The notes beneath the pieces are model-generated. The model searched no databases. It saw nothing but the letters and a program-made list of their open reading frames with translations, and was not told where the DNA came from. Shown here one piece after another: positions 17,848-48,437 of a stretch of DNA of 64,000 bases. The translations under genes and the position numbers were made by a program. Within the stretch, counting starts at the first letter, position 1; each line of letters starts with the position of its first letter. The DNA comes from Candidatus Portnoybacteria bacterium (GTDB lineage Bacteria; Patescibacteriota; Minisyncoccia; Portnoybacterales; GWB1-42-6), in assembly GCA_016208745.1 (NCBI GenBank), contig JACQXN010000020.1, positions 9,062 through 73,061 on the forward strand, given 5' to 3'.

Positions 17848-17932
17848 TTGTGCAACCGGTAACTTGATCAATCGTTGCACAGTCTATTAAATCTCCCCTA
17901 GCCCCTCCTAAAGGAGGGGAATTACTCCTTAT

Positions 17933-18763
17933 ATGCTTATTGATACTCACGCTCACATTAACTTTATTGCCTACAAAGAAGATGGCGGGGAAGTTATAAA
18001 AAGGGCATTAGAAAATAATACCTGGATAATTAATGTCGGCTCGCAATGGGATACTAGCCGCCGGGCAGTTGAATACGCCAAAAAATATGAAGAAGGCATA
18101 TTTGCGGCTGTGGGCTTGCATCCTATTCATTTAAGAAGCATAAAAATAAAAGAGGAATTTGATGAACAGGAATTATTAGAATTTGAAACGCAGGAAGAAA
18201 AATTTGATTATGAAAAATATAAAACATTAGCCAGTGAGTCGGGCGCCATAGCTATAGGCGAAACAGGATTGGACTATTACCGTATTAATGAGGAAGACAA
18301 GGAAAATCAAATAAAACTTCAAAAAGAAAATTTTTTAGCGCATATTAAATTGGCGCAAGAAATTAGCAAACCTTTGATTGTCCATTGCCGCGAGGCGCAT
18401 AACGAGGTTTTGGAAATATTAAAGTCGCAAGTGACAAGTGACAAGTTGCAAGGAGTAATTCATTCTTTCTCGGGCCGGTTGAGCCAGGCAGAGCAATATT
18501 TAGAAATGGGATTTTATTTAGGATTTAATGGTATCATTACTTTTGCGCGGGATTATGATAAAGTAATAAAGGAAATACCGCTTGAGAGAATTTTGGTTGA
18601 AACCGACTGCCCTTATTTAACGCCGATTCCTTTCCGCGGAAAAAGAAACGAGCCTTTATATGTTAAATATGTGGCGGAGAAGATAGCGGAAATAAAAGGA
18701 GTTTCGTTTGATGAGGTGTCAGAAGTGACAACGGATAATGCGAGAGGACTATTCTATATATAA
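17933..18763 (+). CDS. tatD: TatD family nuclease
   Basis: DTHAH, GLHP, IGETGLDY, HCREA, HSF, ETDCPYL. Confidence 0.95.
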   Translation: MLIDTHAHINFIAYKEDGGEVIKRALENNTWIINVGSQWDTSRRAVEYAKKYEEGIFAAVGLHPIHLRSIKIKEEFDEQELLEFETQEEKFDYEKYKTLASESGAIAIGETGLDYYRINEEDKENQIKLQKENFLAHIKLAQEISKPLIVHCREAHNEVLEILKSQVTSDKLQGVIHSFSGRLSQAEQYLEMGFYLGFNGIITFARDYDKVIKEIPLERILVETDCPYLTPIPFRGKRNEPLYVKYVAEKIAEIKGVSFDEVSEVTTDNARGLFYI

Positions 18764-18784
18764 TGCAAATATCATGCGAATCTT

Positions 18785-19180
18785 ATGCAAATGCCGCAAA
18801 TAGATAAGATGATCTATCCGGAATTATCATATAAGGTCTGTGGTCTATGTTTTTATATTCATAACCGACTGGGTCGATATAGGAACGAAAAGCAATATGG
18901 CGATGCACTAGAAGTTGCTTTTGATGAAGCGGGCATCATTCACAAAAGAGAAAAAAGGTTGCCAGCATCTTTTGTCGGAGAGAAAAGCTATAGGAATATA
19001 CCGGACTTTATCATTGAAGATAAGCTGATTGTTGATTTGAAAGCCAAAACCATAATCACAAAAGATGATTATTTCCAGATGAGGCGCTATCTAGTCTCTT
19101 ATAAAAAGAGGCTGGGTCTCATTATTAATTTCCGTCAAAAATATTTGAGACCAAAAAGAATCCTAAATAAATTTGCTTGA
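18785..19180 (+). CDS. GxxExxY protein (PD-(D/E)XK nuclease-like)
   Basis: LGRYRNEKQY motif; PDFIIEDK..VDLKA; GLIINF. Confidence 0.88.
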   Translation: MQMPQIDKMIYPELSYKVCGLCFYIHNRLGRYRNEKQYGDALEVAFDEAGIIHKREKRLPASFVGEKSYRNIPDFIIEDKLIVDLKAKTIITKDDYFQMRRYLVSYKKRLGLIINFRQKYLRPKRILNKFA

Positions 19181-19228
19181 TTTATTCGCATCATTTGAAT
19201 ATCATTCGCATTTATTTGAATTATATTT

Positions 19229-19705
19229 ATGCTTGAGATCAAAAAATACGGCGAGCCGATTTTAAGGAAAAAAGCTAAACCGGTTGGAAAAATAGACCCG
19301 GAGATTTTGAAATTGATAGATTATATGATTCAGGCCATGCGGCAGAATCAGGGAGTCGGCGTGGCGGCAAATCAAATTGGCATTGATTTGAGAATCGCGG
19401 TTGTCGACGCGGGCAATGGTTTAAAAATTTTAATTAATCCCGAAATTATTAAAGCAAGGGGAAAAAGCGTTAAGGATGAAGGATGTTTGAGTTTCCCGGG
19501 AATATATTTTAAAATCGCGCGGCCAGAAATCGTGGAAATGAAAACTTTAAATAAAAAAGGCGAGGAGGTTATTTTAAAAGCCCAGGGCTTGGAAGCCCGG
19601 GCTTTTTGTCATGAGATAGACCATTTAAACGGGAAATTAATTATAGACCATTTAAGTTTTTGGCAGAAATTAAAGTTTAAAAAGGGTCGGCTATCTAATC
19701 GTTGA
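19229..19705 (+). CDS. def: Peptide deformylase
   Basis: GVGVAANQ, EGCLS, HEIDH. Confidence 0.97.
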   Translation: MLEIKKYGEPILRKKAKPVGKIDPEILKLIDYMIQAMRQNQGVGVAANQIGIDLRIAVVDAGNGLKILINPEIIKARGKSVKDEGCLSFPGIYFKIARPEIVEMKTLNKKGEEVILKAQGLEARAFCHEIDHLNGKLIIDHLSFWQKLKFKKGRLSNR

Positions 19706-21380: not shown

Positions 21381-23987
21381 ATGGATAAATATGACCCGAA
21401 AAAAGTAGAGCCCAAATGGCAGAAGTTTTGGGAGGAACATCCCGAGCTTTTTTCAGCCAAAGAAGATTCCAAGGGAAAAAAGGAATAGATTTTGGATATG
21501 TTTCCATATCCTTCAGGCGATGGTTTGCATACCGGGCATGTTGAAAGCTATACCGCAACAGATATCATTTCCCGTTATTGGCGTATGAAGGGAAAAAATG
21601 TTTTGCATCCGCAGGGCTTTGACGCTTTTGGTTTGCCGGCAGAAAACTTTGCCATTAAAACAAAGATTCATCCTTCGCAAACCACTCAAAAAGCAATTGC
21701 CACTTTCAAGCAGCAAATGAATATGCTCGGATTTTCCTATGATTGGTCGCGGGAAGTTAATTCGTCTGACCCAAAATATTATAAGTGGACACAATGGTTT
21801 TTTCTTTTACTTTACAAAAATGGTCTGGCATATAGGGGTAAAGCAAAAGTTAATTGGTGCAATTCTTGTCAAACGGTTTTGGCCAACGAACAGGCCGAAG
21901 GCGGAGTTTGCGAGCGATGCGGCAGTCCGGTTGTGCAAAAGGATTTGGAGCAGTGGTTTTTTAAAATTACTGATCTTATTGAATCCAAGGGCGCTACTTC
22001 CGGATTGCTACAGGGTCTTGATAAAATTGACTGGCCAGAATCAACCAAAGCCGGCCAGCGCAACTGGATAGGGAAGTCAGAGGGAGCGCAGTTTAAAATG
22101 GAAATTATAACCAGTACCACCCCGGCCTCCGGCCACCCCTCCTCAGCTGAGGAGGGGACGAAAGGGGAGGTGTTGGATTATATTGAAGTTTTTACAACGC
22201 GATTGGACACGGTTTTTGGGATGACTTTTGCCCTTATCGCTCCGGAACATAAGATTATCAACGAGCTTAAATCGCAAATTGAGAATTGGAGTGAGGTTGA
22301 AAAATATATTGAAGAGGCCAGGAAAAAATCAGAGTTGCAAAGAATTTCTGAAACCAAAGAAAAAACAGGAGTGGAAATAAAAGGCGTAAAAGTTATTAAT
22401 CCTTTTACCGAGCAGGAAATTCCGGTTTTTATTTCCGACTTTGTTTTAGCGCATTATGGAACAGGCGCTGTTATGGCCGTTCCCGGACACGACCAGCGCG
22501 ATTACGAATTTGCTAAAAAATTTAACCTGCCGATTATTGAAGTGATAAAAAGCGAGGACAGAAAATCATCAATTGAAAAGGAGGCATTTATAGAAGATGG
22601 GGTATTGGCTAATTCGCGCGAATACGACAATACAACTTCTGCAAAAGCACGCGAAAAATTAATTGAGTGGATCCAGAAAAATAATCTGGGCGAAAAGAAA
22701 ATTAATTACAAAATGCGCGATTGGTTGGTTTCGCGGCAAAGATATTGGGGCGCGCCAATCCCGATAATTTATTGTCCGCAATGTTGTCATTCCCGCCCCG
22801 CATCGCAGTACGGGGCGAATCTAGAAAACGAAAAATCTGGATCCCGGATCAAGTCCGGGATGACAGAATTTGAAATTACAGAGATTGACGGAAAAAAATA
22901 TGCGATGGTCCCCATTCCAGAAAAAGATTTACCAGTGCTTTTGCCTGATGATGTTGATTTTATGCCGCATGGCGAATCCCCTCTTTCAAAATCAAAAAAA
23001 TTTCACGATGTTTCGTGTCCAAAATGCGGAGAGAAGGCGAAAAGGGAGTCAGACACAATGGACACATTTGTCTGTTCCTCCTGGTATCATTTCCGTTATG
23101 CTGATCCGAAAAACGAAAAAGAATTTGCCAGCAAAGAGAAAATAGAGAAATGGTTGCCAGTTGATTTGTATGTTGGGGGCGCGGAGCATACGGTTTTACA
23201 TCTTTTGTATTCCCGTTTTTTTACCAAGGCCTTGCATAATCTCGGCTACATTGATTTTGACGAGCCGTTTTTAAAAATGCGGCATCAAGGAATAATTTTG
23301 GCTGAAGACGGCCAAAAAATGTCAAAGTCGCTCGGCAATGTTATCAATCCTGATTCGGTGGTGGCACAATATGGCGCCGATGCCTTACGGATGTTTGAAA
23401 TGTTTATGGGGCCGCTGGAAGATGCAAAACCTTGGAATACTAAGGGGATCACCGGGATCTATAGGTTTTTGGAGAAAGCATGGAGGATAAGCTTAAAGTT
23501 TAAAGTTAAAAGTGAAAAGTCAGGGCTAGAAGTTAAAAGTTTAATACATAAAACAATTAAGAAAGTTAGTGAAGACATAGAAAAATTAAAATTTAATACA
23601 GCTATCAGCGCATTAATGGTTTTGCTAAATGAGATTGAAAAAAACGAAGAAATGCCCATCGAGGTTTTTGAAAAGTTTTTAATTCTCCTTTCGCCCTTTG
23701 CGCCGCATATCTCAGAGGAGATTTGGTCACAGTTAGGTCATGAAGAAAGTATTTTTAAAGAAAAATGGCCTGAATATAATCCCGAATTAATTAAAGAAGA
23801 GATAATTGAGTTGATCATTCAGATTAACGGCAAGGTGCGCGATACGATTTCTGTGGCGGTTGATATTTCGGAAACTGACGCTAAAAAACTCGCGCTTGAA
23901 AGCGAGAAGATAAAAAAATATCTTTTGGGCAGAGAGCCAAAGAAAATTATTTTTGTTAAAGAGAAACTAATAAATATTGTATTGTGA
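21381..23987 (+). CDS. leuS: Leucyl-tRNA synthetase, with in-frame TAG at 21486-21488
   Basis: MDKYDPKKVEPKWQKFW N-terminus in frame with MFPYPSG..HTGH; GAVMAVP, SRQRYWG, KMSKS. Confidence 0.93.
22116..22170. repeat. Family A-like hairpin in-frame inside leuS
   Basis: CCCCTCCTCAGCTGAGGAGGGG palindrome, compare 58381 and 62719. Confidence 0.85.
22785..22865. repeat. Family B palindrome in-frame inside leuS
   Basis: TGTCATTCCCG...CCGGGATGACA, 81 bp. Confidence 0.88.
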
Positions 23988-27810: not shown

Positions 27811-27963
27811 CTACGGAATACAGATAAGTACAGATATACGGATAAAAACAAAATCCACCCCGCCCCTCCTTTAAAAAGGAGGGAGATTCCTCCCTTTGAA
27901 AAAGGGAGGGTAGGAGGGATTTGGATTTAATCTGTATATCTGTAATAAATCCATAATCCGTAG
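27811..27963. repeat. Family C periodic inverted arms (ACAGAT/ATCTGT) enclosing a family A repeat (27851-27922)
   Basis: CTACGGAATACAGAT...ATCTGTA..ATCCGTAG. Confidence 0.85.
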
Positions 27964-27970
27964 AGAAATC

Positions 27971-28867
27971 ATGCAAAATATCGGCAAAGGCCTTCATTCA
28001 TTAATTCCGCCAAAATCAGCTTCCGGCGAAGTTTCTTTTCCGAAAATCTCCCAGCCTCTAAGGTCAAAAAAAGAGAGCGTTTTTAATGTCGAAACGAATA
28101 AAATTAAACCTAATCCCATGCAGCCGCGTCAGGAAATGGACAGAGAAGATTTGCAGGATTTAGCGGAATCAATAAAAGAACACGGCATTTTGCAGCCTTT
28201 GATTGTTACCAAATCTGTCAAGGATTTAGCCAAGGGGCAAGACGTTGAGTATACATTAATTGCCGGCCACAGGCGATGGGAGGCGGCTAAAATGATCGGT
28301 TTGCCGCATGTGCCAGTTATTATCAGGGACTCCACGGAGCAGCAAAAATTAGAATTGGCTTTAGTTGAAAATCTACAAAGGAGCGATCTAAATGGCCTTG
28401 ATAAGGCCAAAGCATTTAAGCGCTTAAGCGAGGAATTTGATTTAACGCATCAGGAAATCGCGCAGAAAGTTGGCAAAAGCCGAGAGCTGGTAACAAATAC
28501 CATCAGGCTTTTAAATCTTCCCCAGGAGATTAAAGATGGAATGATGGCGGGAAAAATTTCCGATGGTCATGCCAGAACCCTAGCTGGCATAAAAAGCCCG
28601 CAAGCGCAGAAGGCGCTTTATGACGAGATTATCAAAAACAATATGAATGTCAGGCAGGTTGAGCAGAGAGTGAGAGAAATTTCCGTTAAAGCTCATAGGC
28701 GGAAAGTATTTTTGGACCCGGAAATTAAAAAAATCGCCGGGGAATTAACGGCGTTTTTGGGAAACAAAACTGAAGTTAGGCGGGCGGGTATTGGCGGGAA
28801 AATAGTTATTGAATTTTCAGATAAAGGGGACTTAGAAAAAGTGATTAAAAAGATTTTAAAATCGTAG
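27971..28867 (+). CDS. parB: Chromosome partitioning protein ParB
   Basis: PNPMQPR, GILQP, AGHRRW, ENLQRSDL, HTH. Confidence 0.96.
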   Translation: MQNIGKGLHSLIPPKSASGEVSFPKISQPLRSKKESVFNVETNKIKPNPMQPRQEMDREDLQDLAESIKEHGILQPLIVTKSVKDLAKGQDVEYTLIAGHRRWEAAKMIGLPHVPVIIRDSTEQQKLELALVENLQRSDLNGLDKAKAFKRLSEEFDLTHQEIAQKVGKSRELVTNTIRLLNLPQEIKDGMMAGKISDGHARTLAGIKSPQAQKALYDEIIKNNMNVRQVEQRVREISVKAHRRKVFLDPEIKKIAGELTAFLGNKTEVRRAGIGGKIVIEFSDKGDLEKVIKKILKS

Positions 28868-28971
28868 AAGCCAATTCACGCAAGGCCGAATTCTAGAAGC
28901 CAATTCACGCCAAATTGGCGTTTCGTCTGGCTTATAGTATTTTATTTTGGCGTTTTGTTTATTGGCCTCTA

Positions 28972-33557: not shown

Positions 33558-33683
33558 AAATAGTTAGAAGGTTTAAGTTAAAAGTTCAAAGTCAAAGTTG
33601 AAAGTTTAAAATTTATTGCGCAAAGCGCGATGCCAAAATTTTTCATTTTCAACTTTTAATTTTTAACTTAGTTCTTTCGAGAT

Positions 33684-39914: not shown

Positions 39915-40052
39915 TTTCTAATTGATCTAATTGCTCTAATTAACCTAATCAATACTCAATGCCCAACGGCAAAATTATTAAAAATTTTTAGACATTGGAT
40001 ATTCAAAAAATTGGGATTTGATTAGAAATTAGGAATTAGAAATTAGATATTT
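39915..40052. repeat. Periodic inverted repeat (CTAAT/ATTAG units)
   Basis: TTTCTAATT-type units left, ATTAGAAATT units right; related copies at 48146-48295 and 57602-57735. Confidence 0.75.
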
Positions 40053-44656: not shown

Positions 44657-44859
44657 GCTACAGAATACAGATTTTATACAGATATACGGATAAATGCCGA
44701 CTGGCGGTTAAGATTACGAGGCTCGTTTTGCCAAGCGGTTAGGTTTTACGTCTTTTTGACGAATGACGCTTGACGCTAAACGATACGAGCTTTGTAACCG
44801 ATAGACGTTAAACGAATGACCAAGTATCTGTATATCTGTACTTATCTGTAATCCGTAGC
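44657..44859. repeat. Family C periodic inverted arms enclosing an unrelated ~120-nt hairpin
   Basis: Right arm TATCTGTATATCTGTACTTATCTGTAATCCGTAG is the reverse complement (2 mismatches) of the left arm at 27811. Confidence 0.85.
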
Positions 44860-48141: not shown

Positions 48142-48437
48142 AATTTTTAATTAACCTAATTATTCTAATTTCTAATCAAATCCCAAAATCCCAATACCTA
48201 ATTTAATTTTAAAACAGGGATATCCGGTATTTTATTAGAAATTGGAATTTGGGAATTATTTAGGTCAATTAGAAATTAGGTTAATTAGAAATTCTCCTCC
48301 TGCCTCTTGACAGCTTTCGCCCTTTTGACCTATCCTGATATAATCTTTACATAAAGAAAAATTTCTCAATTTTTTCAAAATCTTTCCCTTCGACAAGCTC
48401 GGGGCAAACTAAGCCCGGGGTATAATTATAAAATATT

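Follow-up and report, generated by a model that had tools for sequence, protein, structure and literature searches.

The stretch of DNA analysed here, 64,000 nucleotides long and called the window below, covers C11:9062-73061 of the 859-kb genome of a Candidatus Portnoybacteria bacterium (the host genome, G000), which is 97.8% complete. Between the host genes tatD and def lies a compact cassette in which a gene for a GxxExxY protein is enclosed by two arms of short, regularly spaced boxes. The features of the locus, with the evidence for each, are as follows.

17933..18763, + strand: tatD, the upstream host gene (PF01026, 264.6 bits; open reading frame, ORF)
18755..18805, + strand: left arm, four 8-nt boxes (sequence; repeat pairs I1 and I2; fold)
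18785..19180, + strand: gene for the GxxExxY protein, 131 aa (TIGR04256, PF13366; alignment; structure model)
19171..19229, + strand: right arm, whose five boxes complement the left arm (sequence; repeat search; fold)
19229..19705, + strand: def (peptide deformylase), the downstream host gene (PF01327, 162.4 bits)

Together, the gene and its arms take up the entire interval between the stop codon of tatD and the start codon of def. The left boxes are ATGCAAAT at 18763, ATGCGAAT at 18774, ATGCAAAT at 18785 and CCGCAAAT at 18794, with spacings of 11, 11 and 9 nt, and the right boxes are ATTTGCT at 19171, ATTCGCAT at 19184, ATTTGAAT at 19193, ATTCGCAT at 19204 and ATTTGAAT at 19214. The first left box is overlapped by the tatD stop codon (TAA, 18761-18763), while the right arm overlaps the end of the nuclease ORF, whose stop lies in the first right box (19180), and finishes 0-3 nt upstream of the def ATG. 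Left boxes 1-3 each open with ATG, 11 nt apart and one per reading frame, and the third (18785) is the start of the GxxExxY ORF. An earlier reading made from the letters and ORFs alone (the sequence-only reading) had described nine boxes flanking this gene and a cassette wedged between tatD and def; all nine boxes are where it placed them, and tatD indeed ends at 18763 and def starts at 19229.

A repeat search at the cassette returned inverted arms of 32 nt at 78% and of 17 nt at 88%, and the flank-to-flank inverted score was 46, the best of 2000 base shuffles reaching 29. In RNAfold the arms pair in both the minimum-energy and the centroid structures, so that a terminal stem encloses the ORF in its loop in the predicted fold; over its full 496 nt, however, the stretch is only mildly stabler than its shuffles (z -1.72; 5/100 shuffles). 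Rfam gave no match at the cassette, and within the window one tRNA only.

The protein scored 78 bits against TIGR04256 (cut-off 35) and 82.8 bits against PF13366 (cut-off 22). These were the only matches in a profile scan of the element's protein, no known transposase being encoded, and the nearest titled records are from Patescibacteria. Ten of the 98 GxxExxY loci collected for this study carry broken or truncated genes as translated here (stops, frameshifts or truncation) and were dropped from the protein alignment; in the remaining 88 intact homologues E35, D74, K86, Q98, Y102 and R125 are invariant. Q98 and Y102 form a QxxxY motif, as in the RecB/Cas4 group. The structure model has a pLDDT of 92, and Foldseek places it closest to LHK exonuclease (best E 5.3e-4), lambda exonuclease and Cas4. 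VIA-align returned restriction-like folds at a middling Z of 7.0-7.6, with none at 8, and a sequence search of solved structures gave nothing below E 0.48. Judged from the modelled fold, the protein is a predicted PD-(D/E)XK nuclease of the Cas4/lambda-exonuclease-like type. In the available part of PMC3424549, the PDDEXK_3/GxxExxY family is listed with unknown function and multiple transfers; the protein described here is a member of it, and the arms, the gene-less copies and the placement at junctions go beyond the account given in that part.

Arms of this kind accompany GxxExxY genes in general. The 98 loci comprise 73 from a contig search, 30 of 35 family matches and three tatD-def loci, minus 3 at contig edges and 5 duplicates. 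With a flank-to-flank inverted score of at least 26 as the criterion, 85 of the 98 have inverted arms, compared with 143/1500 mismatched flank pairs, 8/98 loci scored in direct orientation and 14/599 ORFs of the own genome. An RCNRAW box occurs 2.7 times per GxxExxY arm, versus 0.5 times in shuffles, and successive boxes stand 8-11 nt apart, most often 10 and then 8. Arm similarity tracks protein similarity (Spearman 0.31; 0/500 Mantel permutations). In 69 of the 98 loci the left arm fits the right arm of its own locus better than that of the closest relative by protein, and in 28 it fits worse, which indicates that the two arms evolve together, either by pairing or by conversion between them. 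A like layout, built of 7-nt units, was found around genes for four-helix-bundle proteins (26 of 29 fetched loci), although their arms are without the RCNRAW box (0.48 per arm). The host genome has three GxxExxY and three four-helix-bundle genes, all of them armed, and its sister cassettes carry PF05635. Some arrangements among the relatives stand apart: an in-frame fusion with GxxExxY ahead of an aconitase-C (leuD-like) domain (L081:402-1346), tandem cassettes with neighbouring GxxExxY genes (L106/L115, G011:C7), and a four-helix-bundle gene immediately 5' of a GxxExxY gene (L122, G015:C4).

In a scan of 51 upstream and 50 downstream proteins, the neighbours of the cassettes are housekeeping operon genes (nusG-rplK, dprA-topA, gap-pgk, iscS-iscU, pheS-pheT, ligA-gatC and others), and none of the 98 GxxExxY loci is antisense to both neighbours. 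When the 26 closest loci were scanned upstream, 20 had a Pfam family there, 17 different families in all and none of them TatD. Twelve of the 98 cassettes, found by a search biased toward in-frame cases, lie in frame within genes with their arms included: six in lepA, two in leuS, two in transketolase genes and one each in recG and a P-type ATPase gene. The lepA and leuS cassettes form one clade on the protein tree, which is a quick tree only. In the host itself, lepA and leuS (G000:C15:16237-16364; window 21492-23987) have short repeat-derived in-frame inserts in the loops that elsewhere hold whole GxxExxY cassettes.

Of 15 family relatives that could be read, three not being fetched, 12 have tatD next to def, and the junction between them holds GxxExxY in three, DUF559 in two, other inserts or remnants in six and nothing in one.

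G001, G002 and G015: GxxExxY, with a frameshift close to the start in G002
G003 and G014: DUF559 with hairpins of its own, nested in leftover arms of the GxxExxY-cassette type
G011: another periodic element
G009, G012 and G013: other hairpin repeats
G004 and G010: remnants of 36-43 nt
G008: clean, with an ATGA overlap

Other junctions behave likewise. The hisS-hit junction is clean in 4 of 14 relatives (gaps of -1, 1, 2 and 5 nt) and, by eye, holds differing arm families in most others, and similar turnover of occupants was seen by eye at parA-parB and at dprA-topA, the latter holding GxxExxY in G010. A GxxExxY match is absent from 4 of the 16 family genomes. The sequence-only reading had proposed at tatD-def a transposase-free cassette with gene-less copies elsewhere, a view that would suffer if other GxxExxY genes were bare and this gene were stably syntenic. 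With 85/98 loci armed and GxxExxY present in only three of the 12 relatives at tatD-def, the view is supported, and the filled and empty alleles that it had suggested comparing in relatives exist, together with differently filled ones. In the host tatD gene, a one-armed 7-nt periodic repeat at 18422-18452 is translated in frame (KSQVTSDKLQG); the corresponding tatD loop in L013 carries an insert that is longer and different.

Gene-less elements of the same design are scattered through the host genome. Seeds from four armed genes recovered 56 paired elements, 23 with TACGGAT arms, 20 with CTAATT arms, 11 with CACGCCAA arms and 2 of the type of the tatD-def gene; Blast with seeds for two A-rich arm families of four-helix-bundle genes yielded largely noise, and these were excluded from the counts. 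The five in the window to which the sequence-only reading had drawn attention are genuine inverted periodic repeats.

27811..27963, + strand: TACGGAT/TACAGAT arms, at parA-parB, its loop being a separate G+C-rich hairpin repeat
44657..44859, + strand: TACGGAT/TACAGAT arms, at the hisS-hit junction
39915..40052, - strand: CTAATT arms (arm-family match)
48146..48295, + strand: CTAATT arms, right after the ftsA stop
33565..33672, - strand: 7-nt AAAGTT-type arms, at dprA-topA, resembling the arms of four-helix-bundle cassettes of relatives

That reading had also made the tatD-def gene the partner of these five, and here it was mistaken. Their arms belong to other families, with local scores to the left arm of the tatD-def gene of 12-16, versus 51 for an element at G000:C10:1892-2024, which by its arm sequence is the empty copy that belongs to this gene. 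The elements at 27811 and 44657 share their arms with a GxxExxY paralogue on C4, which has an internal TAG, and those at 39915 and 48146 with a four-helix-bundle gene on C25. The arms at 33565 score 32-36 against four-helix-bundle arms of G014 and G001, and no filled partner was found in the host genome. Copies are of whole units: the element at 44657 and one at a mreB-mreC-like junction (C28:62829) share 91% identity across 202 nt that take in the loop, and elements at C18:457 and C28:6440 (96% over 100 nt) and at C28:80430 and C28:78272 (94% over 93 nt) occupy unrelated junctions. The sequence common to copies often extends to TAG on the left and to near the ATG on the right. No target-site duplication was seen in six aligned near-identical pairs, although old copies could have lost one. 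A further CACGCCAA-family arm, absent from the list of the sequence-only reading, follows the parB stop (~28864-28920). The repeats at 17889-17928 and in the loop of 27811-27963 are G+C-rich hairpins of one family, and each has over 20 matches in the genome; these hairpins also flank the sole DUF559 gene (G000:C13:26389-26712), which makes a second filled/empty system.

Of 48 elements placed at junctions, 45 lie between co-directional genes (background 645/790) and one at a convergent junction, and 29 of those 45 leave 4-9 nt between the end of the stem and the ATG. Every one of the 21 copies that could be oriented points with transcription, and in four cases this runs counter to the leading strand as assigned by GC skew only. 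Among GxxExxY loci of the Patescibacteria type, 33 of 55 have a stem whose ends lie no more than 12 nt from the stop and from the start, versus 4 of 20 others, in which it ends farther from the start (median 15.5 nt versus 2 nt) and Shine-Dalgarno (SD) motifs are visible in several.

Taken together, these observations make it very probable that the element is a mobile unit complete in itself, with turnover at junctions and with non-autonomous copies that move whole. The tatD-def unit is probably a cassette of this mobile and selfish kind, and its predicted nuclease would carry it, along with the copies that lack the gene, from one operon junction to another; we put about equal weight on the element's own predicted nuclease being the mover and on something else filling that role. 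The nuclease would bind the box arrays, which are about one helical turn apart, on paired arms, whether hairpin DNA or a cruciform, and would then cut; host recombination-repair would paste the unit in, replacing the short stop-start spacer. The promoterless gene would be carried on the host transcript, where the paired arms would loop it out and leave the upstream stop and the downstream start within about 10 nt of each other. With stop and start held close in this way the operon would keep working, and the cassette would be tolerated as a result. By extrapolation from translational coupling, a terminating ribosome may open the base of the stem and expose the next start. Within genes, only in-frame insertions in surface loops would survive. 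Whether arm pairing in the mRNA matters for tolerance in this way seems to us an evenly balanced question.

Several points weigh against a cassette moved by its own nuclease. The 98 loci share kinship and so are not independent, and the four tatD-def GxxExxY proteins require 3 changes on the quick tree, its well-supported branches being compatible with one origin. Four-helix-bundle proteins are not known nucleases, so their sharing of the same architecture implies that a common outside factor could move both kinds of cassette. Selection after insertion alone could explain placement and orientation, without targeting. Of five near-identical pairs, four are oriented alike with respect to their host genes and one is inverted. 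G.U and A.C mismatches in the stems run in opposite directions, 108:75 in filled loci and 41:65 in gene-less copies. A duplication of AT at ATGA stop/start overlaps, which by eye fits tatD-def, was rejected, the base that follows the downstream ATG (+4) being A in 25/51 cases against a background of 47%. Immediately upstream of the stop, A stands in 33/55 cases (background 44%, p 0.02). Finally, no joint that skips the cassette, and no variant, was present in the contigs of four DNA runs from one study, possibly the source study, a result not taken as evidence.

If not its own nuclease, an outside enzyme could move any pair of arms, either a visiting HUH/RAYT-like transposase or host recombination acting on hairpins, and the GxxExxY or four-helix-bundle protein would be a passenger that binds the arms for self-regulation or addiction. 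Two unrelated cargo families in one layout suggest this, as do DUF559 and its hairpin repeats nested in old arms and the GTAG in which the TACGGAT family ends. In REPtron/RAYT systems a GTAG or CGTC tag stands beside a short palindrome, and the arms of the tatD-def gene have none. Tyrosine transposases flanked by terminal inverted repeats (TIRs), with matching repeat families, are moreover known (PMC3733652). Yet PF01797, the Y1/RAYT transposase family, has no match in the nearly complete host genome, the arm motif is specific to the cargo and tracks the protein tree, and the catalytic residues are invariant even in in-frame fusions. We regard such a passenger as unlikely.

Another account places the event in the messenger, as in intervening sequences (IVSs) of 23S rRNA. 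RNase III or the encoded nuclease would cut the stem, freeing the message of the small gene and segmenting the operon, and spread would be secondary, perhaps via RNA. The predicted pairing of the arms and the co-variation between left and right arms agree with it, and so does orientation, which tracks transcription and not replication in the four informative cases. RNase III is present in the host genome, and PMC4990558 describes the IVS of Coxiella as a terminal stem of 28 bp that RNase III cuts. The stem also tends to end farther upstream at loci that use an SD motif, with the medians given above. The copies within lepA, leuS, recG, transketolase and P-type ATPase genes speak against it, for cutting would destroy those messages and splicing needs no open frame. 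With 12/98 cassettes in frame within genes, the insert can simply be translated, which argues against obligatory removal from mRNA; obligatory splicing is unlikely. Furthermore, no gene split into two halves around a cassette was found among the 51 upstream and 50 downstream neighbour proteins scanned, the Omnitrophota-rich set lying outside that scan, the G.U test is contradictory, and the nearest folds are DNases. We consider this account improbable. Of the alternative offered by the sequence-only reading, an RNA stem that loops the gene out, the stem itself is favoured by the predicted fold and by left-right co-variation, whereas excision from the mRNA is disfavoured. A separate observation is that G000:C20:12485-14647 is a single open frame that combines a sigma-70-like region (by eye) with a complete RNase III domain; the genome also encodes another RNase III, of the ordinary kind.

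It is very improbable that the host has domesticated the elements as spacers for tuning translational coupling where SD sites are rare, with the gene-less copies as relics formed in place and the nuclease in a cellular role: the scarcity of SD-like motifs (91/579 host-genome starts), the 4-9 nt from stem to ATG in most copies and occupants persisting across genera (G000 and G002 at tatD-def, G000 and G013 at dprA-topA) favour it, but junctions are clean or otherwise filled in relatives, 4/16 family genomes are without a GxxExxY match, whole gene-less units are duplicated at unrelated sites and several genes are broken, so that junction turnover has already weakened it.

Narrower candidates were rejected. 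A homing endonuclease gene does not fit 17 upstream families among 20 annotated close loci, nor one clade in both lepA and leuS. A self-splicing or enzyme-spliced intron was rejected in view of the missing Rfam match and of all 12 intragenic copies being in frame, in a search that favours in-frame copies, and locking to the replication strand was rejected since the four informative copies follow genes instead.

A cassette moved by its own predicted nuclease can also be set beside known systems. REPtrons and TIRtrons, in which a RAYT or TIRYT tyrosine transposase is flanked by repetitive extragenic palindromes (REPs) or by TIRs, likewise place an enzyme gene within inverted repeats, with gene-less copies scattered downstream of stops and some of them in frame (PMC3733652). 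Here the enzyme is a predicted PD-(D/E)XK nuclease, not a HUH transposase, the boxes are A+T-rich and periodic, not short G+C-rich palindromes, and the elements shun convergent junctions (1/48) and abut the next start codon. The ORF-bearing 23S rRNA IVSs of Coxiella and Leptospira (S23p/PF05635) likewise carry a small ORF in a loop closed by a long terminal stem, and their origin and mobility are called unclear (PMC4990558). In contrast, the present elements lie at mRNA junctions or within protein genes and not in rRNA, their cargo is GxxExxY, and excision is disfavoured for the in-frame copies. [quoted passage not shown] Rickettsia palindromic elements (RPEs) are palindromic and lie in frame inside housekeeping genes (PMC10969869, PMC3733652), as do 12/98 of the related loci, though not the tatD-def copy; the in-frame insert here is a whole nuclease domain of ~150-190 codons, while no enzyme is known for RPEs. 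In layout the element is thus like a REPtron or TIRtron, in shape like an ORF-bearing rRNA IVS, and in its gene-less and in-frame copies like MITEs and RPEs, and it fails a defining test of each. No description of it was found in the literature searched, which covered few subscription papers, supplements lying outside it; the element is real and non-ordinary, and apparently undescribed in that literature.

Other cassette-like features were noted in the host genome. Fourteen GIY-YIG matches (e.g. C4:5506, C6:7333, C7:9153, C7:9512, C13:24505, C16:17446), most of them small, could be a further class of cassette; many directly adjoin tRNA-like sequences or lie between duplicated tRNA-like ends, and the one at C25:3941 lies between palindromic repeats. 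A lone reverse transcriptase of 367 aa lies within a polysaccharide gene cluster (G000:C3:5400-6500); inspection of its surroundings revealed no repeat pair or four-helix-bundle gene, and nothing seen there tied it to the cassettes.

Beyond this locus, and more tentatively, the elements might represent a mobile class that itself encodes no transposase, integrase or reverse transcriptase. In it, a minimal nuclease of the Cas4/RecB-like kind would recognise box arrays on paired arms and install the unit, or its gene-less copies, as a portable stop-to-start spacer along the direction of transcription, with its own stop codon at one end and a leader to the next ATG at the other, and the 23S rRNA IVSs would be rRNA-landed members of the sister four-helix-bundle branch. 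PF13366, a widespread family whose function is listed as unknown, would then gain a role and a defined substrate, and the unexplained origin of ORF-bearing rRNA IVSs becomes open to testing. Should the mover be the nuclease, a mobile system built of one 131-aa enzyme and two arms of 45 nt would rank among the smallest, and its placement spares operons. Such an element would also account for the odd in-frame nuclease domains of LepA, LeuS and RecG, and for a large share of the DNA between genes in these small genomes, the host alone having 56 paired elements of four arm families.
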